NCBI GenBank assembly: GCA_947304395.1
Contig: CAMZBA010000002.1
Coordinates: 48,593 to 112,592 of the forward strand
From: an uncultured Candidatus Saccharibacteria bacterium
GTDB lineage: Bacteria > Patescibacteriota > Saccharimonadia > Saccharimonadales > Saccharimonadaceae
Length of the DNA stretch: 64,000 bases
Reading direction: 5' to 3'
The position numbers and the translations under genes are program-made. A model generated the notes under the pieces. That model did not search any database. It saw nothing but the letters and a program-made list of their open reading frames with translations, and was not told the origin of the DNA. Positions 1-47,131 of this stretch are shown here, one piece after another (position 1 is the first letter of the stretch; each line of letters starts with the position of its first letter).

Positions 1-289
1 TAATAAATAAATTACTATGGTTTATTACATCTTGAACTAAATAAACTAATGGTTGACTAATTAAAAAGAAGATAAAACATTTTAACGCTGAATCTTTTGC
101 AGATTTGCTATTCGTAATAATAAATATTCCAAAAAAGATCCATACTTCAAAGGTAACAGTTAAATCACTAAATGAAGTATCTTTTGCTATAGGTAACATA
201 GCCATTATGGCAGTATAAATTCCTGCAATAATAGCAATAATAATTAACTTTGGCCAAGTTAAATTAATCCCACCAAATATCTTTTTCAT
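1..289 (-). CDS. membrane protein, N-terminal part only (gene runs off the left edge)
   Basis: A minus-strand ATG at 289-287 opens a frame that stays open to position 1 (MKKIFGGINLTWPKLIIIAIIAGIYTAIMAMLPIAK...). The product is hydrophobic. It is absent from the ORF track because the window truncates it. Confidence 0.45.
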   Translation of the reverse strand, partial: MKKIFGGINLTWPKLIIIAIIAGIYTAIMAMLPIAKDTSFSDLTVTFEVWIFFGIFIITNSKSAKDSALKCFIFFLISQPLVYLVQDVINHSNLFI

Positions 290-430
290 AATATCTCACT
301 CTTTCTTAAAAAAATCATACCATAAAAAAGGGAGTTAACAGCGAGCGTATTCATGAAAGTCTAGATGTCCTATCTCCGGACGAATTTGAGCAAAAGGCTG
401 TTCCGGCAAAAGTCCAGTTTAACAGGGGGC

Positions 431-6319: not shown

Positions 6320-8077
6320 ATGGGAAAAATCAAAGCGATATTGTTCGCTGTCTTTTTAGCAACGGCTTCAATATTATTTGCCGTCACCAATACTTACGCT
6401 AATGAGGTCTGCGTCGCAGCCGGCGTCAGCGATCCAATCTTATGCGGAAATCACAACTCAAATGAAGAGAGAGAGCTAATAAACCGCACAAGCAACGTGC
6501 TTAGCGTCGTATATACATTCATCGGCATAGCGGCAGTAGTAGTAATTATTATCGGCTCTATAATCCTAATGACATCCAGCGGCTCGCCCGAAAAAGTCCA
6601 AACAGCAAAAAGGGCCATCTTGTACGCCATTCTTGGCCTCGTAGTTACACTTTCGGCATTTGCCGCGACGACATTAACCATAAACGCACTAGAGGGCAAC
6701 ACGCAAACCTCAGCTGCCGACGACGAAAAAATAAGGCAGCGAAACACCGAGCACGCTAAGGTTAGAGCTATTTCAGCCATTAATGAAACGACGATACTTA
6801 TCGACCAAAGCATAACACTTAAGCCAGTAGTAATTCCAGATTATGCAGAAAATAAGAGCCTATCATACAAGACCAGTGACGCCAGTATTGTAACCGTAGA
6901 CGAGAATGGAAAAGTTACCCCGAAAAAAGTTGGCGATGTGACTATAACAATCATATCCGCAGATGGCCCAACAAAAGACGTAAAAGTACACGTCGTTAAA
7001 CCAATTTCCGTCGAAAAAATCAATATCAATCCCACAGCCCTCACCTTGAGCATTGGCAAAACCGCCACAATAAGAGCCGAGGCATTGCCGCGAAACGCCC
7101 TAGATAGGACCATTACTTGGACTAGCAGTAACCCGCAATCCGTCACGGTAACTCAAACCGGAGAAATAAAAGCAGTTGGATCCGGAAAAGCCACAATCAT
7201 TGTCGCCTCAAAGGATAAATCTGTCACAGCTACCGCATTAGTAACCGTACAGGGCGGCGGGGACGGCTCTCTAGAAACCGAACCTGCACCAGTAGGCAAA
7301 AAGGCACCCAAAAACCTAGATTTTAGAGCCGCTACGCGTAAAATTATTAACCAACACAAGAAAGACTTTGACTGGTGTAACTACGAATCAAAAATCAAAG
7401 AACTTGGCGGATACACGGCCTATATCAAGAGTCTTGGCGGAATCTTTGCGGATAACGTAAATAAGAAATTTAAAGTGAAAACCGCCGCAGAGCTACAATA
7501 TGCAGCAGAGTACGTCTGGGGGCTCTGGACAATTTGGGGGCCAGATTATGATAATGGCAATACATATCACAAGTGGGGTCTTGGCGCGGCCGACGGCTTC
7601 CACAATTGCCATGGCGACCGTCATGCCGGCTCTGGCTACTCGCAGGCAGAAATTAATGATTTGTTATCTAAAAAGAAAAAAGTGCGCACAAACTGTAATG
7701 CATCCCAAACAACATTCAATAAAACAACTGACTTATTCCAAATCGACTCTACGAGGTTTAAAGCTCAAACAAAGATGAGTCCAGTCGGCAGAATTACTAA
7801 GACTAACCAACTTCAGGTTGGCGACTGGGTGCACTTCTTTAGGCAGCCAGGCTACGCGAAATGGGGGCACGTTGCTATGGTGGGTGAAGTATACGATGAT
7901 TATGTCATAATTTACGAAGGCGGAGGCCGCTTCGTAAAATCAACTTATTTTAAACACAAGCTCAAACGCTCGGGCGACGGCAAACTTAGCGATAGCTACT
8001 CCCACTATAAATCATGGTTCGGCGTTAGGCCGTTCAAGATTGATCAAAGCGTATATCTAAAAGGCATGAACCCATGA
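6320..8077 (+). CDS. surface protein: signal peptide, VirB2/TrbC-like double-TM hairpin, 2x Big_2, C-terminal NlpC/P60-like papain-fold hydrolase
   Basis: Signal peptide, a Cys pair (CVAAGVSDPILCGN), two TM helices separated by SSGSPEKVQTAKRA, and two Ig-like Big_2 repeats (VTPKKVGDVTITIIS; IKAVGSGKATIIVAS). The C-terminus has candidate Cys (RTNCNASQ) and His (GDWVHFF...WGHVAMVGEV). Confidence 0.65.
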   Translation: MGKIKAILFAVFLATASILFAVTNTYANEVCVAAGVSDPILCGNHNSNEERELINRTSNVLSVVYTFIGIAAVVVIIIGSIILMTSSGSPEKVQTAKRAILYAILGLVVTLSAFAATTLTINALEGNTQTSAADDEKIRQRNTEHAKVRAISAINETTILIDQSITLKPVVIPDYAENKSLSYKTSDASIVTVDENGKVTPKKVGDVTITIISADGPTKDVKVHVVKPISVEKININPTALTLSIGKTATIRAEALPRNALDRTITWTSSNPQSVTVTQTGEIKAVGSGKATIIVASKDKSVTATALVTVQGGGDGSLETEPAPVGKKAPKNLDFRAATRKIINQHKKDFDWCNYESKIKELGGYTAYIKSLGGIFADNVNKKFKVKTAAELQYAAEYVWGLWTIWGPDYDNGNTYHKWGLGAADGFHNCHGDRHAGSGYSQAEINDLLSKKKKVRTNCNASQTTFNKTTDLFQIDSTRFKAQTKMSPVGRITKTNQLQVGDWVHFFRQPGYAKWGHVAMVGEVYDDYVIIYEGGGRFVKSTYFKHKLKRSGDGKLSDSYSHYKSWFGVRPFKIDQSVYLKGMNP

Positions 8078-8598
8078 AAACGAATACAAATAATAAAATT
8101 AATCTAATAACACCAATCATTATCAGTGTCGTCGCGATCGCTGTCGTAATAGTTACTTGCATAATCCTAGTAAACATTAATTCAAAGAATATAGAAGCCG
8201 TGATTCGCGAAGCCATTGACTCGGGAATCCTTGAAAAAGACTATTCACCCCTAATGAAGCTCAGCAAAGAACTAATCGGGCAAAAAGTCTTCCTAGACGA
8301 CGCCGAAGAAAAATTTTCAAACGAAGAAGACTTATTCGACTTCTATGTCTCGGAAAACAACGGCTATATTGCAGATAAAAGTTCGAGCGAAAGAATTACA
8401 TTCGACATTATTATCGAAGAAGCAGACGCGCCACCTACCTTAATTGATTTCGTTTATCACGAAACTATCGGCGACAATGATTCTTTCGTCATGAAAACAA
8501 GCGAAAACACTTTCCAACATTTTAATGGTTACGTTACTAATGAGTTCAATAATCTTGACGAAGCCCTAAGGGATCATCTAATCGTAAGGGAGGATTAG
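8074..8598 (+). CDS. small single-pass membrane protein, family S (C-terminal FQHFNG..EF..LDEA..DH motif)
   Basis: ATGA overlap with the upstream gene. N-terminal TM helix. C-terminus reads IDFVYHE...NTFQHFNGYVTNEFNNLDEALRDHL. Confidence 0.75.
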   Translation: MKTNTNNKINLITPIIISVVAIAVVIVTCIILVNINSKNIEAVIREAIDSGILEKDYSPLMKLSKELIGQKVFLDDAEEKFSNEEDLFDFYVSENNGYIADKSSSERITFDIIIEEADAPPTLIDFVYHETIGDNDSFVMKTSENTFQHFNGYVTNEFNNLDEALRDHLIVRED

Positions 8599-8602
8599 CT
8601 AC

Positions 8603-9196
8603 GTGCAAAATCAAAATCAAATATTAAGCCCCATGCCATCAATCAATCAGATGCCACAAACTCCTAAGCCAGCTCCACAGCAATTCAGCAAAAAATCCAC
8701 CATTATCATCGCTTCAGCTATCATAGTAGCAGCAATCATAATTGCAGCCACAATCGTCATTCTGAATAGCCACAACCAAGAAACACCGCCGGATAGTCAA
8801 ACGCCAGGAGGTGCAGGCGGAACCGCCAAGGAAATAAACGAATTTAACGAGAAAGAAGACGGCACCAAAAATACACAGACACTTATACAATATTCGTCCC
8901 TCCCCAGCACGATCAGTCTTACCGAACTAAAGAGTACAATCGGGAATACTGGAAAAATAGAAATAGTCGATAATTCAGGCGACATCGATTTTGGCGATGA
9001 TGACGAATATATCTCATTCGACATCGATGGCGACCAGGTAAGTAATTTTATATACACTAAAGACCAAGGCGACTACGCACTTTTCATCCAGGAAACCGAT
9101 ACGGGAACATTCGAATATTATAGCGGCATAGGTACATATGCCGTAGAAACGAAGCAAGAGGCAATCTCCCTATATCTCAAGACAAAGCAAGAATAA
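8603..9196 (+). CDS. small single-pass membrane protein, family S (divergent member)
   Basis: GTG start preceded by AGGGAGGA. TM helix at aa 30-55. C-terminus reads EYISFDIDGDQVSNFIYTKD...GTFEYYSGIGTYAVETKQEAISLYL and aligns with the family motif. Confidence 0.7.
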   Translation: MQNQNQILSPMPSINQMPQTPKPAPQQFSKKSTIIIASAIIVAAIIIAATIVILNSHNQETPPDSQTPGGAGGTAKEINEFNEKEDGTKNTQTLIQYSSLPSTISLTELKSTIGNTGKIEIVDNSGDIDFGDDDEYISFDIDGDQVSNFIYTKDQGDYALFIQETDTGTFEYYSGIGTYAVETKQEAISLYLKTKQE

Positions 9197-9254
9197 AGCG
9201 TGTTATAATCATAACAGCATAACGCTTATGTAGAAACTAATACGGGGTCAATCA

Positions 9255-9992
9255 ATGCAAGAGCAAAACTATATACAACTTCAACCAGCCTCAACAGTTA
9301 ACGCCGCCAAACAGAGTAGGCTGAAATTGGTGTTTATTATAGTCTCAATCGTAATTATCATCTTAGCCATAATTGCCACCTGCATTGTGATTTTCAAAGA
9401 GAACAACACTATTTTCGTCACTAACCATGGCTGGACCATCACGAGGGACGAAAGAAGTAATGAAAACATCATCACTTTAGCTCTAGAAGTCGAAAACACT
9501 TCAAAAAACAAATACGCAAGCGACATAACGGTAGCTGCGGAAGTATACGATAACGGCAAGGAAGTCGCAAGCATCGTGGACGCATGTTATATCGAATATT
9601 TAGCCCCAAACGATAAGGCCTACTGCGCGAGCAACATAATTCAAGAGAGCGACTATAATATTACAGATATGGCGTTCACGATCAACGGCAAAACCTTAAA
9701 ATATAGCAATTACAATGCCAACGAGCAAACAAATAGCAACTCATTTGAGGTTACCGATATTGACGACGAGGATAAGGAGAACATATCCTGCACAATCAGA
9801 AATAATAGCAGTGTCACCGTAAACAATCCAATTGCGACTATAGTGTTTTATAAAGACGGGAAGATTATTGGTGGCGCTAGTGGTGAAATAGAGGAAGAAA
9901 CGCTTCCATCAAAAGGAGAAACATCAATCCAATTCTACGGAAACCGCATCCAGGAATACGACGAATACAAAATAGGCGTAACTGGTATATGA
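9255..9992 (+). CDS. single-pass membrane protein with beta-rich (DUF4352-like?) ectodomain
   Basis: N-terminal TM helix followed by two similar beta-strand-rich halves (ALEVENTSKNKYASDITVAAEVYDNGKEV ...). Its stop overlaps the start of the next gene. Confidence 0.6.
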   Translation: MQEQNYIQLQPASTVNAAKQSRLKLVFIIVSIVIIILAIIATCIVIFKENNTIFVTNHGWTITRDERSNENIITLALEVENTSKNKYASDITVAAEVYDNGKEVASIVDACYIEYLAPNDKAYCASNIIQESDYNITDMAFTINGKTLKYSNYNANEQTNSNSFEVTDIDDEDKENISCTIRNNSSVTVNNPIATIVFYKDGKIIGGASGEIEEETLPSKGETSIQFYGNRIQEYDEYKIGVTGI

Positions 9993-11908
9993 GAAACAAG
10001 CTCTCAACCATACTAGCCGTACTTGCGCTCATACTTACGCTAACGCTTGCTATCACGCCAAAAGCATATGTATTCGCAGGCGGCGACGCGTGCTCGATAG
10101 CCGGAAATTCAGACCCACTACTTTGCGGCAATCAGCATAGCGACGAAGAGCTAGCATTGATGAAGCGCGTCAAAGATGTCCTGCATGTTGTATTTACGGC
10201 AATCGGCATTATAGCTGTCATAGTTATCATTATCGCAGGCATACAACTGATGCTATCGAAAGGCGAAGCACAAAAAATATCCCAAGCAAAAATGGCAATA
10301 TTTTACTCCATTAGTGGCTTAGTAGTGACATTTTGTGCTTTCGCATTCACGGATCTAGTAATCGGCGCCATTTATGGACAGCTACCAGGCGAAACCGTAG
10401 CAACAACTCCAGACAAAGACCGCACCGAAGTTAAGGCAATCAGCTTAATGCGCAAAATCGCCATGACCGTTGGTCAAACTTTACAGATTAACCCAAGAGT
10501 TATTCCAGATTACGCCACAGACCAAAGTCTCACATACAAGTCAAATAATACATCTATCGCTAACGTAAACGACGCGGGTGAAGTTACGGCCGTCACAAAA
10601 GGCGAAACGGATATCGTCGTGTCGTCAAAAAACGGCGTCAAGAACCAGACCACAATCGTAGTCTACGATAGAATACTAGCTGAAAGGATAGTAGTCAGCC
10701 CTACCACCGTATCGTTACAAGTGGGTCGAACTACTCAGGCAACAGCAATAGTATATCCAACGAACACGACCGATAAAACCCTAAAATGGACAAGCGCCGA
10801 CGAAAATATAGCTAAAGTAAACATAGCTGGCCTCATTTCGGCAGTCAAGCCGGGCGATACAATAATCACGGTCGTGACAAAAAACGCTAATGCCTCACAG
10901 CCAGGAGTCCAGGGAGTTATCAAAGTGCACGTAGAGAGCCCCGATAGAGGCTACGTCGTCAATCCTTACAATCCGGATGACGGCGGCAATACCGGAGGCG
11001 GCAAAGAAACTACAGGCGCCACAACAAATGTAAAGTATTCCGGATGGCTAGATTTTCGCGAAGAGACCAGGCAGATCGTTAAGAAGAATATGGACGGCAT
11101 TAATTGGCAAAATCACGATTCTTTCCTAAAATCGCACGGTGGATACGCCAACTATATCAATAGTCTAGGAGGTGTCTTCTCAAAATTTGGCGGCAAAGAT
11201 GAAAAAATCCCGATCAAAACCGCAGCCGATCTACAAGAGGCAGCAGAGTATTTCTTCGGCATTTTCTCAATATACGGGCCAGACTATAGCGCCGGCGGCC
11301 GTTGGCCAGTCTGGGGAGAAAATCAAAATAATCACGGCGTCGCCAAAAAGGGAACACCCGACGGATTTTATTATGGCTACGACGACCGACCATACAAGAA
11401 ATCAAGTGCCGCAAAGCCATGCGGAAGGCATGTCCAGATGGCTATAGATTACGAGTTTGGCAAAGGCTACAAGGGCGAGAGTTGTATCAAGAAACGCGTC
11501 CGCGGCAACTGCAATTATAGCCAAGACAGTTTTATCCGCCAAACGAACCTCCAACTACCATCATCTAGTAATAGCTGGACATCTGAAAGCACACACCACA
11601 ATAAATCTAAGATTAAACACGCCAATGAGCTACAGGTTGGCGACTGGGTACATTATTATTCGGGCGGAGAATGGAAACATATCGCTATAGTCGGAGAAGT
11701 ATATCAAGACATAGTAGTACTTTATGATGGCGGAGGACGTTTTAATAGAAGTATGCACTACAAAAAAATCATGTATCGCAATACGGATTCGCTCAAAGGC
11801 ACCGAATATAGCGGCTATAGTAAATGGGACGCCGTACGTTTATGGGACATCGACCAAAACGTAACCCTCAAAGGAATTAACGATAAACCCAAAAACTGGA
11901 TTTGGTAA
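9989..11908 (+). CDS. surface protein, paralogue of 6320..8077 (VirB2-like hairpin, 2x Big_2, NlpC/P60-like C-terminus)
   Basis: Same order of elements: signal peptide, CSIAGNSDPLLCGN, two TMs with loop SKGEAQKISQAKMA, Big_2 repeats, then RGNCNYSQ ... GDWVHYY...WKHIAIVGEV. Confidence 0.65.
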   Translation: MRNKLSTILAVLALILTLTLAITPKAYVFAGGDACSIAGNSDPLLCGNQHSDEELALMKRVKDVLHVVFTAIGIIAVIVIIIAGIQLMLSKGEAQKISQAKMAIFYSISGLVVTFCAFAFTDLVIGAIYGQLPGETVATTPDKDRTEVKAISLMRKIAMTVGQTLQINPRVIPDYATDQSLTYKSNNTSIANVNDAGEVTAVTKGETDIVVSSKNGVKNQTTIVVYDRILAERIVVSPTTVSLQVGRTTQATAIVYPTNTTDKTLKWTSADENIAKVNIAGLISAVKPGDTIITVVTKNANASQPGVQGVIKVHVESPDRGYVVNPYNPDDGGNTGGGKETTGATTNVKYSGWLDFREETRQIVKKNMDGINWQNHDSFLKSHGGYANYINSLGGVFSKFGGKDEKIPIKTAADLQEAAEYFFGIFSIYGPDYSAGGRWPVWGENQNNHGVAKKGTPDGFYYGYDDRPYKKSSAAKPCGRHVQMAIDYEFGKGYKGESCIKKRVRGNCNYSQDSFIRQTNLQLPSSSNSWTSESTHHNKSKIKHANELQVGDWVHYYSGGEWKHIAIVGEVYQDIVVLYDGGGRFNRSMHYKKIMYRNTDSLKGTEYSGYSKWDAVRLWDIDQNVTLKGINDKPKNWIW

Positions 11909-11909
11909 T

Positions 11910-12404
11910 ATGAAGAAAAAGAGCGTCATTATAACATCGTCAGTAGTGCTACTATTTATAGCAATCACGATCGCTACGGCAGCAATCGTCTTTGTCAATA
12001 AGGCTCAAACCGGCCAACAAACAGAAGACGATCAACCCTTCGATATTGATTACACTGATATGCAAGAAGTATATTACAACTTCGAAACAGAAATGCAGCT
12101 TGACGAGATTAAGCAATTCGCAAAAGAAATCAACGAAAAGATTGAAGTGCAAACTGGAGAAGATTGGGGCAAAGTTCTACTCGAAGATTCTCGCGAATTT
12201 ATTGATTTCACGCCAGTTACATACGATGGAAATATATATGCGGAAGACATAATATACTACGATAGGAGCGAAGGCGTTACGACCTATATCCTCAAGAGTA
12301 ACTACTCCAAATATACCCATTTTAATGGCGTTTCAGCGACCGAATTTGACACCATAGAGGAAGCAATCAGCGACCACATCCAATACACGAAATATCGAGA
12401 GTAA
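11910..12404 (+). CDS. small single-pass membrane protein, family S
   Basis: Starts 2 nt after the upstream stop. TM helix present. C-terminus reads YTHFNGVSATEFDTIEEAISDHI. Confidence 0.75.
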   Translation: MKKKSVIITSSVVLLFIAITIATAAIVFVNKAQTGQQTEDDQPFDIDYTDMQEVYYNFETEMQLDEIKQFAKEINEKIEVQTGEDWGKVLLEDSREFIDFTPVTYDGNIYAEDIIYYDRSEGVTTYILKSNYSKYTHFNGVSATEFDTIEEAISDHIQYTKYRE

Positions 12405-12419
12405 AGACAAAGATAGATA

Positions 12420-12448
12420 AACCCGTCAGTTTAGTTGGCGGGTTTTTT
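12420..12448 (+). terminator. rho-independent terminator between convergent genes
   Basis: Stem aacccgtc / ggcgggtt with a 9-nt loop, then TTTTTT. Confidence 0.6.
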
Positions 12449-12484
12449 ATATGTTGCACAATAGCCGCAATATCACTCTAAGCC

Positions 12485-14941
12485 CTATATAAGCTCCTTG
12501 AATGGCTTTCTGCTTGAATAATAGTAGCCAAAGCCATTAAGATTGCAGTAACTCTTGATTGTCTTTTCTCTATCCTTGTTGTCGCCATACTCTAGAAGAT
12601 AAACAAAGAGGTTTGCCGCTTTTACCTTCTTGAGGTACTTCTTTAGATACTCGGTATCTTCAGAGTTCTGCTTATTGCCATCATTGTCCGAGAAAACCTC
12701 CTCCTGATTTACGCCGTCAAACAATTCCTTATATGAACCATCTTGGATTGATCTGGTCACAAAGTCATCCGCGCCATTTATCATAACTTCCATACCTCTG
12801 CTATGGATTTTTCTCAGAATATTTTGCAACCCTGCATATAAACCGCTCTTTTTATTCTTGTAATAATAATATACATCCAAGTTATCGATATAGTAGCCAT
12901 CGGCACCCTTAGCTCTCAATTTTGGCTCGAGCTCTTCCGTAATAAAATCTTGCCACACCTTACTAGACGCATCTACCCACCTTTCTGCATCCCAACCTTC
13001 ATATTTGCCTAAAATAAGGTTTTTAAAACGTTTATCGCCACTATAATACCGAGAGCCATCTGTCCACTCAATTGCACCAACATTAAGGTAGGAATATACT
13101 TTTATGCCTTTGGCATGGAGCTCATCAATGAACGCTTTTGGAAATCCTTCTTGGAAGTCTATTACTACATGATCATGATTATATAGTCTGCTTAATTTAC
13201 TTTTATCACTATAATCAAGCCCAAGATATACTCCGTATTTTTTACCGATCTTTGCCGAAGACTTACCGGTCACGGTTACTTTTACTTTTGCAGATTTACC
13301 GTTCGCCGTTCGAGCTGTAATAGTCGTTTCGCCAACTTTCACGCCTTTCACTTTGCCAGCTGACACGGTCGCAATTTTTTCATCGTCGGACGTCCACGTC
13401 ACACCAATATTAGTCGCATTTGCAGGGTATATCGTATAGCCTATCGTCTTAGAATCACCGACACCTACCTTTATGTCTGTCATGTTTAATTTAATGCAAG
13501 TCGGTTGCACACCGCTAGTTAAAGTCGTGCCGCCACCAGAAGAGCCACCATTGCCGCCGCCAGAAGCAGATTCAGAATTATCTCCAGTATTCACAACTGG
13601 CGAGAAATTCCCGATCGGCATAATCAGTAAGTCTAATACAATCGACATGCCACACCAAAGCACGAGCCCAATTACAATCGCATAGAAACGATTCTTAGCC
13701 GACACGAGTTTGCCAGAATCGCCCGCTGCCGTCATTACAATGTAGCCAGTAAAAAGAACACCCAATGTGCCGGCCATCCCCGCAGAAATAGTCAAAAAGT
13801 CAATTACTCCGTTAATAATGCCGCCAATTGATGCCGTAGAGTTTGTTGGCGAACATAAGCTACCTGGCAAAATCGAGGTACATTGGATTTGACGAGTAGG
13901 CGCAACCGTTACGGGCGGATTATCTTTGGGGTCTAGATGCTTGCGTGTCGATGCGATCCCGCATTCGCAATTTACATCCGACGGATCACAACCACCTTTT
14001 GGATCAGAAACAATTAGCGGATTATTAATATCAACATTCGTAGACTCGCTAATGCCCAAAGTTTTACCACTAACCGCGTAAATAGCAGCACTATGCCCCC
14101 AACTAGTGCGAGCATTATTCGTCGGGACCATCATGAATAAACCGCCATCGCTACCAAAGGCCAACCCCTCAATAAGCCCAGTTTTTACGACACTCTCGGA
14201 AATCTCAATATCCTTTACGTGCTTGTTTTCTTTATGGTTGTAAAAACGTAAAATTGCGCCATGACCATGGACCATATCGTTTACCACTAAGTAATTTCCC
14301 CAAGTAGCAGGGCCTTCCTCATACTCCGTGCCGCTATAATTATCCGTTTTAGTGTCTTTAATGGTTTTAAGATTGCCATCCTTAATTTTGTGGCCCTCAT
14401 TCCCAGTCCAATACCAATCGTATGTTTGATTATATGCAAGTTTAGCACTGCCAACACCGTCTATCTTTTTTTCATACTTCATCGTCACATCATCAAACAC
14501 AAACGTCCCCGCCTGAGTTGCTAATAGCAATTTGCCAGATGTGTAATTATATGCAAGAGAACTAGCATGGCCGTAGCAACCGGGGTCGCCGTATCTACTA
14601 CATGAAAAATGTCTCTTTTCCGGTATCATCTTGACGACCTTAAAAGTCTTACGATCTATAAAATAAATTCTGCTTCTCGTCGTTGGACTATAGCCACCTT
14701 CATCAATTAGGAACGAGATTACAATATGCGTTGGCGTTAGAGTAAAGCCTTGCACCTCACCATCACCATCATTATCGACAAAACAATCCGTGCCAACACC
14801 GCAATTATCTCCGGTTTTAAAGTGCTTCACAAGTTTTATGCCACTACTTATTTTAGTTAGGGCCGTGGCATTATTTGAAAAGGATAATGCCCCAATCATC
14901 ATAAACGCAAAAGCCAATAGCCAATAGAATTTATTCTTCAT
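12485..14941 (-). CDS. surface protein: N-terminal beta-rich domain, Cys-rich linker, VirB2-like double-TM hairpin, Gly linker, Big_2, C-terminal GH114-like (PF03537) glycosidase
   Basis: Signal peptide. Mid-protein hairpin reads IGGIINGVIDFLTISAGMAGTLGVLFTGYIVMTAAGDSGKLVSAKNRFYAIVIGLVLWCGMSIVL. Linker SGGGNGGSSGGG, then Big_2 (GKVKGVKVGETTITART). The C-terminus VVIDFQEGF...IKVYSYLNVGAIE...GYYIDNLDVY is typical of the endo-alpha-1,4-polygalactosaminidase (GH114) TIM-barrel family. Confidence 0.6.
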   Translation of the reverse strand: MKNKFYWLLAFAFMMIGALSFSNNATALTKISSGIKLVKHFKTGDNCGVGTDCFVDNDGDGEVQGFTLTPTHIVISFLIDEGGYSPTTRSRIYFIDRKTFKVVKMIPEKRHFSCSRYGDPGCYGHASSLAYNYTSGKLLLATQAGTFVFDDVTMKYEKKIDGVGSAKLAYNQTYDWYWTGNEGHKIKDGNLKTIKDTKTDNYSGTEYEEGPATWGNYLVVNDMVHGHGAILRFYNHKENKHVKDIEISESVVKTGLIEGLAFGSDGGLFMMVPTNNARTSWGHSAAIYAVSGKTLGISESTNVDINNPLIVSDPKGGCDPSDVNCECGIASTRKHLDPKDNPPVTVAPTRQIQCTSILPGSLCSPTNSTASIGGIINGVIDFLTISAGMAGTLGVLFTGYIVMTAAGDSGKLVSAKNRFYAIVIGLVLWCGMSIVLDLLIMPIGNFSPVVNTGDNSESASGGGNGGSSGGGTTLTSGVQPTCIKLNMTDIKVGVGDSKTIGYTIYPANATNIGVTWTSDDEKIATVSAGKVKGVKVGETTITARTANGKSAKVKVTVTGKSSAKIGKKYGVYLGLDYSDKSKLSRLYNHDHVVIDFQEGFPKAFIDELHAKGIKVYSYLNVGAIEWTDGSRYYSGDKRFKNLILGKYEGWDAERWVDASSKVWQDFITEELEPKLRAKGADGYYIDNLDVYYYYKNKKSGLYAGLQNILRKIHSRGMEVMINGADDFVTRSIQDGSYKELFDGVNQEEVFSDNDGNKQNSEDTEYLKKYLKKVKAANLFVYLLEYGDNKDREKTIKSYCNLNGFGYYYSSRKPFKELI

Positions 14942-15395
14942 AATTCTCCCTAATGTAGCAATTCAATATAGCATACGTAGTAGAATCAGTCATTCTTAAC
15001 AAGGCGCCATTCGTAGAAAGCATATATTCCAAATTAGGGCCAGTTCCGCCAGATACATTTAAGTACCCATCTACGCTATCGTAGAGATATTTTCGACTAT
15101 TATTCTCGGTTAAGTCAATGAAGTTGCCCGCTTCATCGATCCGTATCATTTTACTATCATCATTACATCCCCATACGCCAATAATACGAGCAAGAGAAGG
15201 CACTTCAAAATCATCCTCATCAACATATTCAACTATGCCAGTATTCTGATAGTCGTCATCGCCAGAGACCTTATTGCCGGCATAATTATTAATCGAAACG
15301 GTCTTTACAATCATCATCACAATCGACATAATTACAGCGCCAATCGCAACACATATAATAATCAAAAATTTACGCTTATCGACATCCGGATACAT
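14931..15395 (-). CDS. small single-pass membrane protein (not family S)
   Basis: GAGGTG Shine-Dalgarno (SD) sequence and an N-terminal TM helix. Its 3' end overlaps the start of 12485..14941 by 11 nt. Confidence 0.6.
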   Translation of the reverse strand: MYPDVDKRKFLIIICVAIGAVIMSIVMMIVKTVSINNYAGNKVSGDDDYQNTGIVEYVDEDDFEVPSLARIIGVWGCNDDSKMIRIDEAGNFIDLTENNSRKYLYDSVDGYLNVSGGTGPNLEYMLSTNGALLRMTDSTTYAILNCYIRENYEE

Positions 15396-15524
15396 AAAAA
15401 CACCTCAACCATCATTAAATTCAATTATAAACAATTTTTTTGTTTTTTGTATATTCTTATGCTAAAATTATTTCAAATGGGAGAAATATTGAGTGAGGTA
15501 ATAATCTTTATCGCACTTAGATAA

Positions 15525-16415
15525 ATGAAGGCAATGAACGAGAACAACAAAGATACTAACCAAGCCGAGAAGGAAAGAATAACCGTCTCGCCTAATATCA
15601 GCGTTAATTCAGACGATTTAAATGAGCTACAGAAAACCATTTCCGTTAGCTCGGAGAATCTCGAAACAACAAAACCGACGACCAAACAACAAACCGAGAT
15701 GAAATTCCGCTCTGCGGATATTAGTCATCTTGACGGCAAGAATCTGATGGTCAACATCGAAGGCTCCCAAAAGCGCAAAATAGAAGAGGCTAAGCAAAAA
15801 AAGAAAGACCAGCAAGAAGCCGAAAAACGCAAGAAAACCGAAGAGCACAAGCGCAAACATGACGCACGAGTGGTCAAGCGCAACAAACGCATTAATAGTT
15901 TAAAAACTATTGCTCAAAGGATTTGGAAACTGAAATTTGTTTTCCTCGGTATCATTGCAGTGATTGTCGTATTCCTATTAGTAACTAAGATCGGAATTCC
16001 TACCGTAGAAAAGATAAAAGATGAAACTAAAAAAGCCACCGAAGAAAAAATCGTTGCCGAAAACAAAACTACCATGATAGAAATCTACCAGGAATTGGCA
16101 GGCAAGATGGTTACAAAGGAGGGCATAGACAGAGTAATCACTTCTACGAATTCAGACATAATTGCAAAATACAACAAAAATGACGGGCTGATATATCACA
16201 CTGACGGCAGTACTGAGAGCATAAGTTTTTCAATTAGTGAAGACGGCACCATTATTAACTTTAATTACTTAGATTATATAGGCAATGAACGCGTATCGAT
16301 ATTCGGCGGCGAGCTCGGCTATTATTACTCAAGAGGCGAAGTATTACAGGAATACGATAATTGTTACGATGCTATAAAAGATTACGTTATAGAAAAACAA
16401 AGGGAGCAAGGGTAG
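15525..16415 (+). CDS. single-pass membrane protein, family S, with Lys/Glu-rich cytoplasmic N-terminus
   Basis: Lys-rich region (KKKDQQEAEKRKKTEEHKRKH), TM helix (FVFLGIIAVIVVFLLV), and C-terminus ESISFSISEDGTIINFNYLDY...YYYSRGEVLQEYDNCYDAIKDYV matching the family motif. Confidence 0.7.
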   Translation: MKAMNENNKDTNQAEKERITVSPNISVNSDDLNELQKTISVSSENLETTKPTTKQQTEMKFRSADISHLDGKNLMVNIEGSQKRKIEEAKQKKKDQQEAEKRKKTEEHKRKHDARVVKRNKRINSLKTIAQRIWKLKFVFLGIIAVIVVFLLVTKIGIPTVEKIKDETKKATEEKIVAENKTTMIEIYQELAGKMVTKEGIDRVITSTNSDIIAKYNKNDGLIYHTDGSTESISFSISEDGTIINFNYLDYIGNERVSIFGGELGYYYSRGEVLQEYDNCYDAIKDYVIEKQREQG

Positions 16416-16417
16416 AA

Positions 16418-19400
16418 GTGGAAAATAAGAAATGTGTAAATAACACTAAAAACAAATTTTACGGCATCACCATAATTGTTTTGGCTGTCTGCGCTACTAT
16501 ATTACTACAAAACCCCGTATCCGCCGCCTGCAGATCGTATGACGCAAAAAAAGATAAGTATGTCGGAAATTCAGAACTATGTTTAAAAACAATGCCAAAC
16601 AATGAGCAAATTAACGAATGGAATTTAGATAACGTAACTTCGACAGAAGTCATTCTAGATAGAAATGCCGTAGCGATCACTAAAGCCGCGATATCATACG
16701 ACGAAGAGGCTAAAGATGAATACGAAGTCGTGTCTTTCGATACTTACAATGTTCTATCCACAGTAAGTGGAAATAATAAAAAGTCCATCAGATATAAAAC
16801 TGCACTTAAAAAAAGCGACACTCTTTATGAACTTCCCGGAGAAATATACCTTAAATATAAAAACGCCGCAAGATCCACTTCGGGCGAAAGATATGATATG
16901 AAAATCACGATCAAAAACATTAAAGTAAAGGCGGGAGCAGATAGGAAAAAAGGCATCCCAATCGTCTGGGGTAGTGATGAAATACTTAAATTCGGAGCTT
17001 TTAGTTATAATGGCGACGGTAATGGCGGCTATCACGGGATAAAATACACTATTGTCGTGCAATTATACGTATCGGGAACAAATTTTAAAACACACATACC
17101 GAGCGGAAATAAAATGCTATGGGGATTCGACGATGTTGATGTGCCCGACAAATTTGCGGATGAAAAACAATACAGAGATTGGAGTGATGGTAAAATTACA
17201 AAAACTAGACACTGGGCCGAGCATGTAGAAATCCCAAGCGATGGTTACAATGGCGCTTTTTATATATCATCTGACAGTAATCTATCTATAGATAAGAACA
17301 AGGATGGTACAGTCCACATATATAATTCCGCTAAATACGGCGAGACTGGTAAAGAAGATGTTTTATATTTAGTCGATCCTAATGGTTTTCATTATATATG
17401 GCAAGGCACCGATTGCGCTACTGTAGCAGCCGCCATCGCAGGTACAATTTATTTTGGGCATAGTGAAATATACAGCGGGAATACTCTACTTAGTCAAAAC
17501 GGAACCGTAACCGTACATAGCAACTCAAAATCTATTAGATTTAGACACTATATCGAACGTAATAACGAAGGCCCACAAACCGACAATGAACGGTATTATG
17601 TAGCAAGTGGCACGTACGCTCCCCCAGCAAAAGGTTCAGCGACATCACCAAAAAGCTATACATCAGAACGAAGCAAGACGAAGGAAGTCTATACCACCGA
17701 TGACAAAGATAATCCTAAAGATATAGCCATCAGCCCAGGTCAATCGTTTAATGTTTGGCAAACATTATATTATGAAGCTTCAAACACAACAAACGTATTA
17801 GGAAGAAACGTCGATATAACATGCGACATTAATAAGACCGAGGTGCAAGGTACTGCCTGTATTAAACTCTATCGCCCACCAGCAACATTTACCGCAACAG
17901 TTACGGCAAACGCAAAACTTAACGGTAACAATTTCGTAGAACCAAGCAACAACAGCAACAAGGTTACTACCAGTGACGGAAGTTTCTCTATACAATTCGG
18001 CGGCAAAATCAAACGCATTCTAACCGAAAACGATTCCGAAAAAGACGCCGGCGGTACAGTAGCTACAGAATTCGCAACATTCCAATCAATTGGAAACGCT
18101 AGTTCAAACAATATGGTTGCCAATACACGAAATCCTGAAGGAAATGACACCATATCGACTAACGCACTTTCGGTTGACGGTACGCATAATATTTTCACGA
18201 GCAAGAACGTCTACAACGGCACCCTCAAATATGGCGAAGAGAGAACAGTATGTGGCGTCGTACATTACCGTAATGTCATCGATCAACGATTAAGCGGTGG
18301 ATATTCAAGTACTTCCGCTTACAAATGCGTCAAAGTCTACCGCGACCCGAAACCCTGCGACATCAATACGGGCATCGAGTTTGGTATCCATAATGGTGAG
18401 AACCTTGGCCGCATCGGTGCCGTCAACTACAGCGTAAGCGGAAACGACAACTTCTCTTATACACCTAACGACGCAGCATCCTACCTAAACGCCTCCGATC
18501 ACACTCAAAGGGTTACGGTCTGGGCACGCCCTGGCGATTCTATTAAATTCGAACACAGTGGATGTGCGGGTGCTCAATATGCCATTAATAACAATTCTAG
18601 CCTCTCGAACGTAACCAGCTACAACTCTACCGGTAGGCTCAGACACTACACGGCATCGTCATGGTCAGTGAACCCTGCAGACGTAAACGTCAACGACTAC
18701 TTGTTTGGCGAAAAGCTTTCGGCAAAAAGCCAAGACTCACCATTAAAATACAGTTCGTCTAAGACCTGGAGTAGCACCGACACTGGTTCTTCCTTCCTGG
18801 TTGGCGACAATGTTGAGTTAAGCGAACAATCCCCATCGGACACTACTAATTCTACCTATGCACGCGATACGTATAATAACAAGAGCTATTCCTGTCTTAA
18901 CCTAAACGAAAACGCACCGTTCCAAAGCAACCATTACCAAATCGCTGGCGTAAATAATACTAACGACACCTCCTGCCATGCCTACTCAAAGACTACCGTT
19001 GCTAGCGATGCTGGCCACATTATTACGCAACGTCTAAACTGGAATTACCTCAAGGTGGTCAACGACAGTCTTAGCTTAAGCGGAAGAAACACAAAACTTA
19101 CAGCCGAAGCTAACGTCATGATCCCATACAACTACAATGCTCAGCCATATATTAGTGGTCCAAATGCTAACGTTGTCTATCGCGGTTCTAGCATGGGCGT
19201 TAACTTAAAGGTCTTTGTTACTCCACGCAAGAATGGTGCTTTTGGCGCGGGAGACACCGAACAAGATAAGGCGCTTAATACTTATGCCACCATTACTAAA
19301 CCGACCACGGTTACCGCTCAATACTATTACCGCTCTAGAAACAACTTCAACTCCATTTTTGGCCGAACCACAATTAACGGCGCAGCTTATTCTGGCCGCC

Positions 19401-20893
19401 TCAACCAAAATGGCGCCTTTAATGGTAATGCCGACGATTCTAGCTCTTTGTCCAACGGCGGTAGTACTGTAGGAGAATTCTCTATTTCAGTACCAGACGA
19501 ACTAGAAATTGGCGACAAAGTCTGTGTTAGCCTCACCGTTACACCAGCAGATAGCCACAACAAATTCATGCAATATGTAGCTGGGTCAGGAGATAATTAC
19601 GTTGCCGTCACGGAAACCGGCACTAGCAGTAAGACTGCCGAATTCTGTCGCACTGTCGCTAAATTACCAACCATGAGCGTAGAGGGATCTAATGCCTTTA
19701 CCGGCGACACTGACCCTAATGGCTATGGTTTTAATACCTCTAGATTTAGCAAAACATTCGACAACAGCGGCGCTAGCTACATGTTTGGCTCATGGTCGGA
19801 ATACGGTGTTTACGGTAAAGTAACCGTGAATAACAACCATGGCTTTGCCTCTGGCGCAACCTTCGGCTACCAAACTGGCAATAATGGCAATATTGCCATC
19901 AACCAAACTCGCTCCAATAGCGGGGAAGTTGCCAAGAGCGGCGCCGCCCATAGCAGCACTTGCGTCTATTCCACCCAGACTTTCGTGAACGCAAACTGCA
20001 ACAGCAACGATGTTGGCAAAGCCGGCATTGGCGAAAATGCCGCAAGACAATTCCGCGAGCGTATTGAGGATCGCTTCACTTCTGGCTCATCTCCTTGGAT
20101 TAGGGAGTCCGAATATGGCAACGACTGCGTAACAAGCAATTACTACCATACTCACAAATGCATCAGCGCCAAAGGCGACTATGCGGACGGCGCTTACCAT
20201 AAATACGCAGATTACGATGTCTACATGAACAACAACAAGGACGAAAACGGCGAATATATCCGCGATGAAAACGGCATGATCCATGTCCGCATCGATGGCA
20301 ACGCCTACTTCGGCTCCGCTACATCGAGTAACTCCACCAAGCTCGACATGGTCATGAACCATAACTTCTGGAGCGATACTGAGACCTTCAACTGGACCTA
20401 TGTCTACGAGATTGGCGGCACCTTTGTTCTGGATGGCGACATCAAAGTTGGAGACATTCGCAACGGTCAGAATAACTACCGCGACGATCCAACCATGCAA
20501 AGATTAGGTAACGTTCGCGTGCCGATCATCTCCGTCAACAAGTTGCATCTTACCAACCGCGTTACTCGCATTGATGCCATCATCTTGGCTAACGAGATCG
20601 ATACCTGCGCCTACAACTCTTACGCAGACTTCGTCAGCGGCAACAGGATTAAGTCCGACCGCAGCAACCTGAGTGCAGACGTCTGCAACAACACTGTCGA
20701 ATTTAGGGCCCCAGTCTACACCAAGAAGCTTATCCTAAACCGCACAGCTGGTAGCGAAAGAGGCAACAGCACTATCCAACGCGCCGAGATATTTGACATG
20801 AATATGGCAGCCTATCTTTGGAGTTACAACCAGATGTCCCGCTACAGCCAAGCGGTGACGGTAGAGCAAAGGGAAAGCGCACCGAGGTATTAG
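16418..20893 (+). CDS. giant secreted/surface protein (1,491 aa), no recognisable domain
   Basis: One uninterrupted ORF. The preferred start is GTG 16418, after a GGGAG SD and 2 nt past the upstream stop; the TTG at 16361 in the track overlaps the previous gene. It has a signal-anchor (FYGITIIVLAVCATILLQNPVSAA) and an Asn/Ser/Thr/Gly/Tyr-rich composition. Confidence 0.7.
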   Translation: MENKKCVNNTKNKFYGITIIVLAVCATILLQNPVSAACRSYDAKKDKYVGNSELCLKTMPNNEQINEWNLDNVTSTEVILDRNAVAITKAAISYDEEAKDEYEVVSFDTYNVLSTVSGNNKKSIRYKTALKKSDTLYELPGEIYLKYKNAARSTSGERYDMKITIKNIKVKAGADRKKGIPIVWGSDEILKFGAFSYNGDGNGGYHGIKYTIVVQLYVSGTNFKTHIPSGNKMLWGFDDVDVPDKFADEKQYRDWSDGKITKTRHWAEHVEIPSDGYNGAFYISSDSNLSIDKNKDGTVHIYNSAKYGETGKEDVLYLVDPNGFHYIWQGTDCATVAAAIAGTIYFGHSEIYSGNTLLSQNGTVTVHSNSKSIRFRHYIERNNEGPQTDNERYYVASGTYAPPAKGSATSPKSYTSERSKTKEVYTTDDKDNPKDIAISPGQSFNVWQTLYYEASNTTNVLGRNVDITCDINKTEVQGTACIKLYRPPATFTATVTANAKLNGNNFVEPSNNSNKVTTSDGSFSIQFGGKIKRILTENDSEKDAGGTVATEFATFQSIGNASSNNMVANTRNPEGNDTISTNALSVDGTHNIFTSKNVYNGTLKYGEERTVCGVVHYRNVIDQRLSGGYSSTSAYKCVKVYRDPKPCDINTGIEFGIHNGENLGRIGAVNYSVSGNDNFSYTPNDAASYLNASDHTQRVTVWARPGDSIKFEHSGCAGAQYAINNNSSLSNVTSYNSTGRLRHYTASSWSVNPADVNVNDYLFGEKLSAKSQDSPLKYSSSKTWSSTDTGSSFLVGDNVELSEQSPSDTTNSTYARDTYNNKSYSCLNLNENAPFQSNHYQIAGVNNTNDTSCHAYSKTTVASDAGHIITQRLNWNYLKVVNDSLSLSGRNTKLTAEANVMIPYNYNAQPYISGPNANVVYRGSSMGVNLKVFVTPRKNGAFGAGDTEQDKALNTYATITKPTTVTAQYYYRSRNNFNSIFGRTTINGAAYSGRLNQNGAFNGNADDSSSLSNGGSTVGEFSISVPDELEIGDKVCVSLTVTPADSHNKFMQYVAGSGDNYVAVTETGTSSKTAEFCRTVAKLPTMSVEGSNAFTGDTDPNGYGFNTSRFSKTFDNSGASYMFGSWSEYGVYGKVTVNNNHGFASGATFGYQTGNNGNIAINQTRSNSGEVAKSGAAHSSTCVYSTQTFVNANCNSNDVGKAGIGENAARQFRERIEDRFTSGSSPWIRESEYGNDCVTSNYYHTHKCISAKGDYADGAYHKYADYDVYMNNNKDENGEYIRDENGMIHVRIDGNAYFGSATSSNSTKLDMVMNHNFWSDTETFNWTYVYEIGGTFVLDGDIKVGDIRNGQNNYRDDPTMQRLGNVRVPIISVNKLHLTNRVTRIDAIILANEIDTCAYNSYADFVSGNRIKSDRSNLSADVCNNTVEFRAPVYTKKLILNRTAGSERGNSTIQRAEIFDMNMAAYLWSYNQMSRYSQAVTVEQRESAPRY

Positions 20894-20923: not shown

Positions 20924-21676
20924 ATGCTAGCGGCAATTCTAATATTGGTTCTTATATTTTACACTGCATTCGTAATCTCTAATTACAGCACCGAACCAAG
21001 CGACGATGAAGTAGACATCAGCAGAACCCCTCAGATGAAAAAACTGTGGAGCCTTGCTCAGACTGCAATACGTGAGCGCAAGCCGCTAAAAGCCGAAAAG
21101 GCATTACTCACTATTCTAAAGTTCGACAAAAAGAATGCCGCGGCATACAACCGCCTCGGCATTCTTTATGCCAAAGAAAAGCATTACAAAGAAGCTATCG
21201 AGTGTTTCGAAATCGCCCAATCGCTAGACAATAATGCTTCAAGCCTTCACAACGTTGGCCTAATCTATCTTGAAACCGGCAAATTCGAAAAAGCAGCAAT
21301 GGCGTTCTCGCAGGCAATTGAACTAGAGGGCGATCAGCCGGGCCGTTACATTGCCTACGCAAAAGCACTAGAAAAAATCGGCGAGCGCCATAAAGCCACC
21401 GAGGCACTCGAAACGGCATATAGTCTGAACCCATCCACAGTAGTATTAAGGCATCTGCTAGAGCTATACGAGAATGCCGGCGACGTCGAAAATATCGAGT
21501 TGACTCGTAAACGCATCGACGAACTGCAGGCGGCAAAGGAACAAGCCGCCGCCAAGGCCGTCAAACCAAAACGCCGCATCATCAAGCGTGAGCCAAAGGC
21601 ACCAAAGCCACCAAAAGAGCGCAAAGCCAATAAGGCTGCTAATGATAAGCAAGCTAAAAAACGAAAAATAATTTGA
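20924..21676 (+). CDS. membrane-anchored TPR-repeat protein with Lys-rich tail
   Basis: N-terminal TM helix, about four 34-aa TPR-like repeats (AAAYNRLGILYAKEKHYKEAIECFEIAQSLD ...), and a KPKRRIIKREPKAPKPPKERK tail. Confidence 0.7.
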   Translation: MLAAILILVLIFYTAFVISNYSTEPSDDEVDISRTPQMKKLWSLAQTAIRERKPLKAEKALLTILKFDKKNAAAYNRLGILYAKEKHYKEAIECFEIAQSLDNNASSLHNVGLIYLETGKFEKAAMAFSQAIELEGDQPGRYIAYAKALEKIGERHKATEALETAYSLNPSTVVLRHLLELYENAGDVENIELTRKRIDELQAAKEQAAAKAVKPKRRIIKREPKAPKPPKERKANKAANDKQAKKRKII

Positions 21677-22107
21677 TTATGCATAAAAAGACCGCGTTGC
21701 CACCAAAACTAATAATATTCGGATACATCGTCTGTGCTATTATTGCTATTGCATTTATTATTACGGGCGGCGTTAAAAGTGGAACCGTCACGCAAACCGG
21801 CACCGACGAGTGTTGCGATCAAGGTATCACATATATCACAAACTCAACCGTAAATATAATTGTTTGCCACATTCTTTTGATCGTAAACGCGGTGCTATTC
21901 GTCGTTCCGATAAACAAATACAAACACAAATTGCTAATAGCTATATTACTATGTCTCCCAATATTGCTCATTCCCATCCAATTTACGACATTTACGGGCG
22001 GGATAGGAGTCTGGACAATTCAACGTACTATTAGCCCACTGCTAGTAATCGAAAAAATGAACGACGAAATTCGCATTTATCCACATATTATCCTATTGCT
22101 CAATTAA
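21673..22107 (+). CDS. small polytopic membrane protein
   Basis: 144-aa ORF with four hydrophobic helices. ATGA-type overlap with the upstream gene. Confidence 0.55.
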   Translation: MIMHKKTALPPKLIIFGYIVCAIIAIAFIITGGVKSGTVTQTGTDECCDQGITYITNSTVNIIVCHILLIVNAVLFVVPINKYKHKLLIAILLCLPILLIPIQFTTFTGGIGVWTIQRTISPLLVIEKMNDEIRIYPHIILLLN

Positions 22108-25604: not shown

Positions 25605-25605
25605 T

Positions 25606-41559: not shown

Positions 41560-41560
41560 C

Positions 41561-47028: not shown

Positions 47029-47131
47029 ATTAACCGTGCAACGGGTGGCAACAAAAACGTAAGTTCGATTAATTAATAGATTACTTCGACTAGGAGCACT
47101 CCCAAATCTAGATAGTCCGTCATGTATATTT

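Follow-up and report, generated by a model that had tools for sequence, protein, structure and literature searches.

The DNA analysed here, referred to as the window, is a stretch of 64,000 nucleotides from contig CAMZBA010000002.1 (assembly GCA_947304395.1) of an uncultured Candidatus Saccharibacteria bacterium of the rumen, and coordinates are those of the window. Three of its genes encode large proteins, here named A, B and C, in which a two-helix membrane hairpin is joined to immunoglobulin-like Big_2 domains and an enzymatic head. Profile alignments show that A and B carry at their N-terminus a complete VirB2-like pilin precursor of family PF18895, that the fusion point is the exact C-terminus of free pilins, and that the hairpin of C is a divergent pilin homologue. 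The best explanation of their predicted features is that A, B and C are Sec-exported surface proteins. We favour, with moderate confidence, a reading in which they are pilin-anchored surface hydrolases whose module still engages a pilin or type IV secretion system (T4SS), deployed on the envelope or matrix of a host or neighbouring cell. Saccharibacteria are ultrasmall, and their cultivated members live attached to other bacteria.

The pilin module of A, B and C

An earlier note on this DNA had described three large proteins with one common module, fused upstream of Big_2 domains and a head. The open reading frames (ORFs) lie where it placed them and encode 585, 639 and 818 amino acids (aa), and the module does precede Big_2, of which A and B have two domains each and C has one. 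Their parts are as follows (TM, transmembrane helix; a slash marks signal-peptide cleavage).

6320..8077, plus strand: A, 585 aa; signal peptide, complete PF18895 pilin, two Big_2, papain-fold Cys-His-Glu head
6320..6400, plus strand: A signal peptide, aa 1-27, ...TYA/NE, from sequence
6401..6694, plus strand: A pilin module, aa 28-125; Cys31/Cys42, amphipathic helix, TM1, loop SSGSPEKVQTAKRA, TM2, end ...INALE
6770..7255, plus strand: A Big_2 domains, aa ~151-312; PF02368 E=2.4e-23, two stretches
7325..8074, plus strand: A head, aa 336-585, putative cysteine amidase/peptidase, Cys459-His517-Glu533
9989..11908, plus strand: B, 639 aa, architecture as A; PF18895, Big_2 E=8e-24, head hidden Markov model (HMM) E=8.5e-95
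10079-10378, plus strand: B pilin module, aa 31-130; Cys35/Cys46, loop SKGEAQKISQAKMA
B aa ~146-318, plus strand: two Big_2 domains (Pfam)
11045-11905, plus strand: B head, aa 353-639 (head HMM)
12485..14941, minus strand: C, 818 aa; signal peptide, beta-rich domain, Cys-rich linker, hairpin, Gly/Ser linker, Big_2, GH114
14042..14860, minus strand: C N-terminal beta-rich domain, ~270 aa (aa 28-300), predicted extracellular
13622..13885, minus strand: C pilin-like hairpin, aa 353-440; Cys354/Cys363, TM1, loop AAGDSGKLVSAKNRF, TM2
13262-13501, minus strand: C Big_2 (Pfam)
12488..13261, minus strand: C GH114 domain, aa ~561-818; PF03537 69.6 bits

The signal peptides end in small-x-small cleavage motifs (TYA/NE in A, VFA/GG in B, ATA/LT in C). 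In all three proteins a Cys pair precedes the first hydrophobic helix, two 19-mers are strongly hydrophobic (Kyte-Doolittle 1.7-3.1), and the loop between the helices is net-basic, with 2-3 Lys/Arg against 1 Asp/Glu; the three loop peptides that had been quoted for A, B and C are each found verbatim. The hairpin is N-terminal in A and B and, as had been described, mid-chain in C (aa 353-440), where it follows the beta-rich domain of ~270 aa and the Cys-rich linker. This N-terminal domain of C has no match in Pfam or, by phmmer, in the PDB. Since a 926-aa relative of C (P0244) carries it together with Big_2, without the hairpin and with a metallo-beta-lactamase-like C-terminal end, it is an independent mobile module.

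The VirB2/TrbC-type layout proposed for the hairpin was confirmed as that of a T4SS pilin. PF18895 (T4SS_pilin) matches A at 39.5 bits and B at 29.4 bits, both above the cutoff of 26.6, and the NCBIfam model NF045849 ('Mbov_0395 family pilin-like conjugal transfer protein') matches A at 41.4 bits against a cutoff of 40. The expected match to PF04956 (TrbC/VirB2) failed to appear: B reaches 12.6 bits (E=0.16), A gives no match, and a related fusion at locus L004 reaches 20.2 bits against a cutoff of 27.9. PF04956 was accordingly rejected as the hairpin family; PF18895, the monoderm/Patescibacterial VirB2-like pilin family, matches instead.

A profile search with the hairpin alone retrieves 903 proteins. 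The best 120 of these 903 all belong to PF18895, are 76-179 aa long and mostly free-standing pilins, and are 35-59% identical to the module of A, many of them matching PF04956 too; only small proteins stand among these best 120, although the long fusions that went into the profile should score equally. The free pilins have the Cys pair and the 'TSQGDPGKV..AK' loop motif, as in the fusions, and they stop at precisely the point from which A and B extend further ('...AFAITNFILSALK' against '...AFAATTLTINALE' running on directly into 'GNTQ...'); a free pilin at locus L013 ends '...INALEGKH'. An HMM of 91 free pilins spans aa 4-125 of A and aa 1-128 of B over about the whole length of the model, and because it aligns end to end, each of A and B starts with an entire pilin precursor. 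Moreover, A retains all invariant and near-invariant columns of a 74-sequence alignment of free and fused pilins. At 585, 639 and 818 aa, A, B and C are unlike the free-standing PF18895 pilins (~100-220 aa) in size. Headless members of the fusion-type subfamily also exist, such as P0129, which is 67% identical to the N-terminus of the fusion P0013.

C has only three relatives with the hairpin; a profile built from the protein and two hairpin-bearing relatives aligns with the free-pilin profile at an hhalign probability of 96.3%. The A/B-family HMM recognises the hairpin of C at E=7e-4; it is kept in the relatives P0242 and P0243 and absent from P0244. In the membrane, VirB2-type pilins have a cytoplasmic loop and expose both of their ends on the outside. 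Since a signal peptide and two helices around a basic loop would place both ends of the module outside the cell, the fused parts of A, B and C are predicted to be extracellular. This topology agrees with the proposal that the Big_2 domains and enzymes are displayed outside, where they would stand on an Ig-like stalk.

Two of the free pilins were traced to long contigs, and both lie in six-gene pilin arrays of rumen Saccharibacteria. The arrays directly adjoin genes for a VirB4-like ATPase, a TraC-like protein, PrgI (VirB3) and a ~900-aa VirB6/TrbL-like protein, which is the Saccharibacterial T4SS locus of Wang et al. 2023 (PMC10633639), surveyed by Quinonero-Coronel et al. 2025 (PMC12102498). 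This T4SS is reported to be conserved across the class, and its role is regarded as unknown, possibly protein export (PMC10633639, PMC11665869); together with its VirB2-like pilin array it is called 'completely unknown' in role by reviews, yet it is essential for epibiotic growth.

One fusion gene lies ~5 kb from such a pilin array and T4SS core. It encodes, at 15055-16635 on the minus strand of L004, a 526-aa protein consisting of a pilin, a poly-Gly linker, two Big_2 domains and a ~200-aa head without a Pfam match, whose motifs (VLWVGNS...YDYVILQEQTD) we take to recall SGNH/DUF4886 esterases, an assignment that we do not claim. Its hairpin is 88% identical to that of the array pilin P0162 and 26-65% identical to those of the other six array pilins; the signal peptide and Cys region differ. 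The T4SS arrays also contain double pilins with two PF18895 hairpins per polypeptide (L004 9338-10000, L005 7865-8527), so that end-to-end extension of the hairpin is evidently tolerated. Two hairpins are likewise present in P0121 and, in tandem, in the fusion protein P0015.

The hairpin is not evolving like a simple anchor. It is conserved at least as well as the catalytic head and far better than the signal peptide, both between A and B (identity 56% in the hairpin, 42% in the head, 31% in Big_2 and 22% in the signal peptide) and between orthologues (83%, 81%, 64% and 44%, respectively). The description of the hairpin as a 'fixed membrane stalk' was thus right about its re-use, while 'stalk' understates a complete pilin precursor with this degree of conservation. 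Judged from these comparisons, the pilin module probably does more than anchor.

Enzymatic heads and partner genes

The Big_2 domains are well above the PF02368 cutoff of 22.8 bits in A (82.3) and B (83.8) and above it in C (36.3), as had been anticipated. The heads of A and B, proposed to be NlpC/P60-like, fall below the Pfam cutoffs: NLPC_P60 (PF00877) gives 18.7 bits for B (cutoff 23), and CHAP (PF05257) gives 15.7 bits for A and 16.6 bits for B (cutoff 26). A phmmer search of the A head against the PDB returned nothing. The AF2 (AlphaFold2) model of this head, built on a 23-sequence alignment, has a pLDDT of 90.5 and a pTM of 0.91. Foldseek matches it weakly at best (E=2.5e-3 to 1e-2, none <=1e-3), but the top matches are uniformly papain-fold amidases, among them phage CHAP proteins, the CHAP domains of LysGH15 and LysK, Gsp amidase, NlpC/P60 proteins, Tae2 and Tse1; CHAP proteins of BFVD are matched with a Foldseek probability of 1.0 at E=2.5e-3. 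The alignments cover a core of ~85-120 residues, and TM-scores are low owing to an extra helical subdomain of ~130 aa. In the model, Cys459 opens helix 132-141, strand 188-197 contains His517, and Glu533 comes after strand 201-205; across 150 family representatives the triad is kept almost throughout (Cys in 143 of 147, His in 148 of 148, Asp/Glu in 145 of 148). Thus the papain fold and the Cys-His-Asp/Glu triad stand, and the membership in PF00877 or CHAP does not: the heads form a separate, small family, with 208 clusters at 50% identity in a profile search of 1.84 billion representatives.

Elsewhere this head occurs with choline-binding repeats, with CW_7 repeats and, in a 1,733-aa protein from Clostridia, with CHAP, NlpC/P60, phage-tail lysozyme and M15 peptidase domains. 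Because of these domain associations peptidoglycan is the likely substrate, and we infer that the A and B heads are peptidoglycan amidases or endopeptidases. The GH114-like head attributed to the third protein was borne out by PF03537 (69.6 bits against a cutoff of 27) and by a match to the PelA hydrolase domain 5tcb over 230 residues (E=1.6e-5); it would be expected to cleave an exopolysaccharide of the alpha-1,4-galactosamine/N-acetylgalactosamine type. As far as domain identity goes, the enzymes are of the wall- or glycan-degrading types that had been suggested.

The re-use of one hairpin with different enzymatic heads extends well beyond the window, the heads on the constant pilin module being CHAP-like, GH114, C39_2 or that of the L004 fusion. 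In Saccharibacteria, P0085 combines the pilin and Big_2 chassis with a C39_2-like peptidase, and a second pilin subtype carries the A/B-type head behind a single Ig-like region (P0042, P0078, P0087, P0091). At least four fusion paralogues occur in one genome, RGIG10081. Outside Saccharibacteria, low-GC contigs encode ~400-aa proteins in which a PF18895 hairpin (29.7-31.6 bits, above cutoff) is fused directly to the head; one such contig has a GerA spore-germination gene, which suggests a Firmicute. On a further bacterial contig of 28% GC (L007, 638-6060) at least four tandem paralogues of ~435 aa follow one another with no intervening small genes. They share a near-identical Cys-TM1-loop-TM2-Cys hairpin (weak PF18895 matches, E=0.002-0.03) and a Glu/Lys-rich coiled-coil linker, and their heads are GH114 (82 bits), CHAP-like, C39_2-like and, in one, without assignment. 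This enzyme set is that of the Saccharibacterial family.

The earlier reading covered the three fusions only and missed the conserved small partner genes between them. These belong to a family, here called sm, of which the window has six members (with BLASTP E-values as low as 1e-34); they are listed here with two further small genes of the locus.

8074..8598, plus strand: sm protein, N-in/C-out single-pass, start overlapping the stop of A by 4 nucleotides (nt), by paralogy
8603..9196, plus strand: second sm paralogue, by paralogy
9255..9992, plus strand: membrane-anchored 245-aa protein in an operon with the fusions, stop overlapping the start of B by 4 nt, conserved in L001
11910..12404, plus strand: sm paralogue, 1-nt gap after B, by paralogy
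14931..15395, minus strand: membrane-anchored 154-aa protein upstream of C, 11-nt overlap with C, not detectably of the sm family
15525-16415: sm paralogue (C-terminal half), by paralogy
25008-25604 and 29800-30498: sm paralogues, by paralogy

The sm proteins have a Lys-rich N-terminus, one TM helix and a ~130-aa C-terminal domain, and are predicted to be oriented N-in/C-out. The spacing of the genes, with 4-nt overlaps between A and sm and between the upstream gene and B and 1 nt between B and sm, points to translational coupling. Using an HMM of the family, we found sm directly 3' of a pilin-Big_2-head gene, often overlapping it, in L011, L012, L013 (twice), L015 and L016, which makes at least six divergent Saccharibacterial loci; these sm-linked fusions have head identities of 37-51%. 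At L012 349-2401 (Ca. Saccharibacteria UBA2834) the fusion is split into overlapping frames (349-1362 and 1181-2401), which may reflect a frameshift, a pseudogene or an error of assembly, and sm still follows. Searches of Pfam, NCBIfam, PADLOC and the PDB gave no match to the family. A putative role of sm as an immunity or inhibitor protein is attractive. Two giant ORFs at 16361-20893 (1510 aa, with a signal peptide) and 25549-29781 (1410 aa, without one) have no Pfam or NCBIfam match and no detectable similarity to each other; the PADLOC 'oligonucleotide cyclase' matches on the latter are faint (E~2e-3) and probably due to chance.

Genomic surroundings of the fusions

Homologues and exact-cluster members of A and C are annotated as Candidatus Saccharibacteria bacterium, and the NCBI cluster names are 'Ig-like domain-containing protein' for A and 'endo alpha-1,4 polygalactosaminidase' for C. 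A scan of GTDB species representatives found copies 93-95% identical in the rumen metagenome-assembled genomes Tb.RUG.403 and RUI495, and relatives at 37-51% identity in Saccharibacteria from yak and sheep rumen. About 25 near-full-length homologues of A in Ca. Saccharibacteria have both PF18895 and Big_2, and a syntenic contig carries the same three genes in the same order at a protein identity of ~70%. The neighbourhood around the fusions is chromosomal, with a class I tRNA synthetase, a pseudouridine synthase (RluD-like), holB and tRNAs. The window contains no free small pilin gene; an ORF at 21673-22107 with E=0.02 was judged doubtful. A phage element was considered and rejected, all PHROGs matches ('major tail protein' and others) falling on the Big_2 domains.

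A polysaccharide biosynthesis island occupies 31580-43212, with a GC content of 33-38% against 42-50% in its flanks. It encodes a sugar transferase, Alg14/Alg13-like proteins, a pyruvyl transferase, a thiamine pyrophosphate enzyme, a short-chain dehydrogenase/reductase, GT4 and GT2 glycosyltransferases, a hexapeptide acyltransferase and a cytidylyltransferase. The island may have been acquired horizontally, and its product could be the substrate of the GH114 domain or a relative of it. Elsewhere in the window, a 178-aa ORF at 46645-47181 (minus strand) has a CdiA C-terminal toxin domain (PF18451, E=9e-16) without a large delivery domain, and near it, at 43713-45371 (minus strand), lies a gene for a 552-aa caspase-like Peptidase_C14 protein; the two may constitute an orphan toxin or conflict module. 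A 475-aa MATCAP-like protein (PF08014) at 22318-23745 and a 564-aa KAP-family P-loop NTPase at 58204-59898 are unusual in a reduced genome.

Competing explanations and their meaning

These data allow us to propose how the fusions may work. A, B and C would be exported by Sec and are built, on the profile evidence, on a type IV secretion pilin. Given its conservation, the hairpin would keep pilin-specific contacts with free pilins or with the T4SS machinery, so that the enzymes would probably be positioned at, or recruited to, the T4SS/pilin apparatus. Their most likely role would be to open the envelope or matrix of another cell, presumably the host or a neighbour. On the surface of the producer itself, the co-translated, outward-facing sm proteins would hold the amidase in check or help it. 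Incorporation of the fusions into a pilus is possible and, because a passenger of more than 450 aa is bulky, would be sparse or terminal at best.

Several observations weigh against this reading. As had been stated before, the 64 kb contain no other T4SS gene: Pfam searches of ~60 ORFs found none, and no match at E<=1 came from tblastn with VirB4-, VirB6-, PrgI- and TraC-like proteins of Saccharibacteria. This absence is uninformative as such, because the T4SS is chromosomal in two other rumen Saccharibacteria and reported to be class-conserved. Most of the fusion loci examined sit among housekeeping genes, and the low-GC hairpin-enzyme loci have no T4SS gene within 8-10 kb, which fits a plain anchor. 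The genetic model strain S. epibionticum carries seven genes of PF18895 and none for Big_2 or GH114, which marks the fusions as accessory and places them outside the T4SS core; their absence from this strain would explain the silence of the literature on oral strains. A closely packed T4SS pilus would have no room for a passenger of more than 450 aa on each of its subunits. The sm paralogues also flank the two unannotated giant ORFs, which disfavours a strict one-to-one immunity role. PF18895 scores C at 15.5 bits (E=0.018), below its cutoff of 26.6. Finally, the resemblance to VirB2/TrbC that had been expected of the hairpin is found in profiles (PF18895 for A and B, with PF04956 below cutoff) and not in structure. 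The AF2 model has two long helices (20-58 and 63-100, pLDDT 81) for which Foldseek retrieved generic coiled coils and hairpins (best E=0.47) and no solved pilin, and the hairpin profile has no PDB match at E<=10; such a two-helix fold is not discriminating, and structural comparison cannot decide pilin membership.

The same generic fold, together with the score of C and the readiness with which hydrophobic helices give spurious profile matches, might suggest that the hairpin is an ordinary pair of TM helices and its pilin label a low-complexity artefact. For A and B this is effectively refuted by two independent curated models above cutoff, by 35-59% identity to free pilins along the full precursor, Cys pair and loop motif included, and by the fusion hairpin that is 88% identical to a T4SS-locus pilin. 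A more serious alternative, to which we give perhaps a quarter of our belief, accepts the pilin ancestry and supposes that the hairpin was exapted as a two-pass anchor. The enzymes would then be autolysins or process the cell's own exopolysaccharide, in division, in the passage of surface organelles or in the manner of PelA. This would account for genes placed among a tRNA synthetase, an RluD-like synthase and holB, for the polysaccharide island 17 kb off, for low-GC arrays without nearby T4SS genes and for the occurrence of the head in autolysin-like architectures. It does not account for a hairpin conserved at least as well as the catalytic domain and far better than the signal peptide, for the pilin columns all kept in A, or for the near-identity of the L004 hairpin to an array pilin. 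Nor would it predict that the fusions are missing from S. epibionticum, and the several paralogues, varied heads and fast-diverging partner genes resemble an offensive toolkit.

Going further than our favoured reading, one might suppose that the T4SS/pilin apparatus, at least in the rumen lineages, is an enzyme-display device and the fusions polymorphic effectors. The T4SS would extract the fusions and co-assemble them with free pilins, sparsely or at the tip, so that the hydrolases reach the target wall while sm gives immunity. We regard this as rather unlikely. In its favour are the constant N-terminal module with variable heads, the conserved and overlapping downstream gene for a small outward-facing membrane protein, fusion at the extracellular C-terminus of the pilin, tandem double pilins in the arrays, the L004 hairpin so close to an array pilin, and a T4SS whose role is regarded as unknown, possibly protein export (PMC10633639, PMC11665869). 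Against it stand the steric problem of the passenger, the lack of sm beside C, the L002 tandem fusions and the low-GC loci including the L007 array, the sm paralogues beside non-enzymatic giant ORFs, and the fact that no Saccharibacterial T4SS pilus has been observed so far. The pilin domain might, alternatively, recruit a wall hydrolase to the assembly site, where in place of VirB1 it would locally breach the peptidoglycan of the producer itself to make way for the T4SS or pilus. Most Patescibacteria with VirB2-like pilins have no recognisable VirB1, and monoderm PrgK, TraG and CwlT are membrane-anchored CHAP or NlpC/P60 enzymes (PMC12102498); a pilin domain would also provide the co-localisation. 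We nevertheless consider this improbable, since the genes here lie outside T4SS loci, S. epibionticum lacks them while its functional T4SS has its own adjacent peptidase and lysozyme genes, GH114, C39_2 and other heads are unexpected in such a role, a stalk of two Big_2 domains holds the enzyme off the membrane-proximal wall, and genomes hold several paralogues (at least four in RGIG10081).

VirB2-like arrays in Patescibacteria, GH114, Big_2 and CHAP-type hydrolases are already known. The known arrays (S. epibionticum SEML1_0014-0019; PMC10633639, PMC12102498) are of the same pilin family and the same bacterial class, at 35-59% identity, and have in common the signal peptide, Cys pair, two-helix layout and GDPGK...AK loop motif. 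Their pilins are free, 100-220 aa long and encoded beside VirB4 and VirB6, whereas A, B and C have 450-690 extra residues and are encoded away from any T4SS gene, C having an added N-terminal domain as well. PrgK (pCF10), TraG (pIP501) and CwlT (ICEBs1) are likewise membrane-anchored, extracytoplasmic CHAP or NlpC/P60-type cysteine peptidases; unlike A and B they have non-pilin anchors, lie inside T4SS operons, lack an Ig stalk, have a different head family and usually add a lytic transglycosylase or muramidase. The minor (tip) pilins of type IV pili and type II secretion systems share the logic of a polymerisation module with a C-terminal functional domain carried on a filament; type IV pilins, however, consist of a single N-terminal helix and a globular domain and VirB2-type pilins of helical hairpins, and fold and machinery are unrelated. 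Among the GH114 endo-alpha-1,4-polygalactosaminidases, represented by PelA and Ega3 and matched by the C-terminal domain of C through PF03537 and PelA 5tcb, PelA is a periplasmic protein encoded in a Pel biosynthesis operon and Ega3 a membrane protein from a fungus; C differs by its pilin-hairpin tether and extra N-terminal domain. The Tae/Tai and Tse1/Tsi1 pairs of type VI secretion systems and polymorphic toxins resemble the fusions in their papain-fold amidase heads and in a constant module with swappable heads, and effector-immunity pairs likewise have, downstream, a small gene that evolves fast and encodes a product facing the compartment in which the enzyme acts. A and B differ from them in secretion route, and in that the partner is absent for some heads and its paralogues flank non-enzymes.

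A literature search found no account of pilin-enzyme fusions, of this head family or of the partner gene. New with respect to the papers found are an uncharacterised papain-fold domain family of 208 clusters, which probably cleaves peptidoglycan, a conserved gene pair of a fusion and a small membrane protein, and a recurring design of a hairpin plus swappable enzyme head in Patescibacteria and low-GC bacteria. If the display of enzymes by the T4SS were true, the fusions would represent a new class of polymorphic contact-dependent effectors based on pilins, paralleled in low-GC bacteria, and a filament or conduit would bring peptidoglycan amidases, GH114 glycosidases, C39-like peptidases and further enzymes to the wall of the host cell. 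In any case, the pilin-hydrolase fusions physically tie an unexplained pilin family to envelope degradation, and so provide a testable clue to the function of the Saccharibacterial T4SS. If they are aimed at hosts, these enzymes would be candidates for how epibionts breach or feed on the bacteria to which they are attached.

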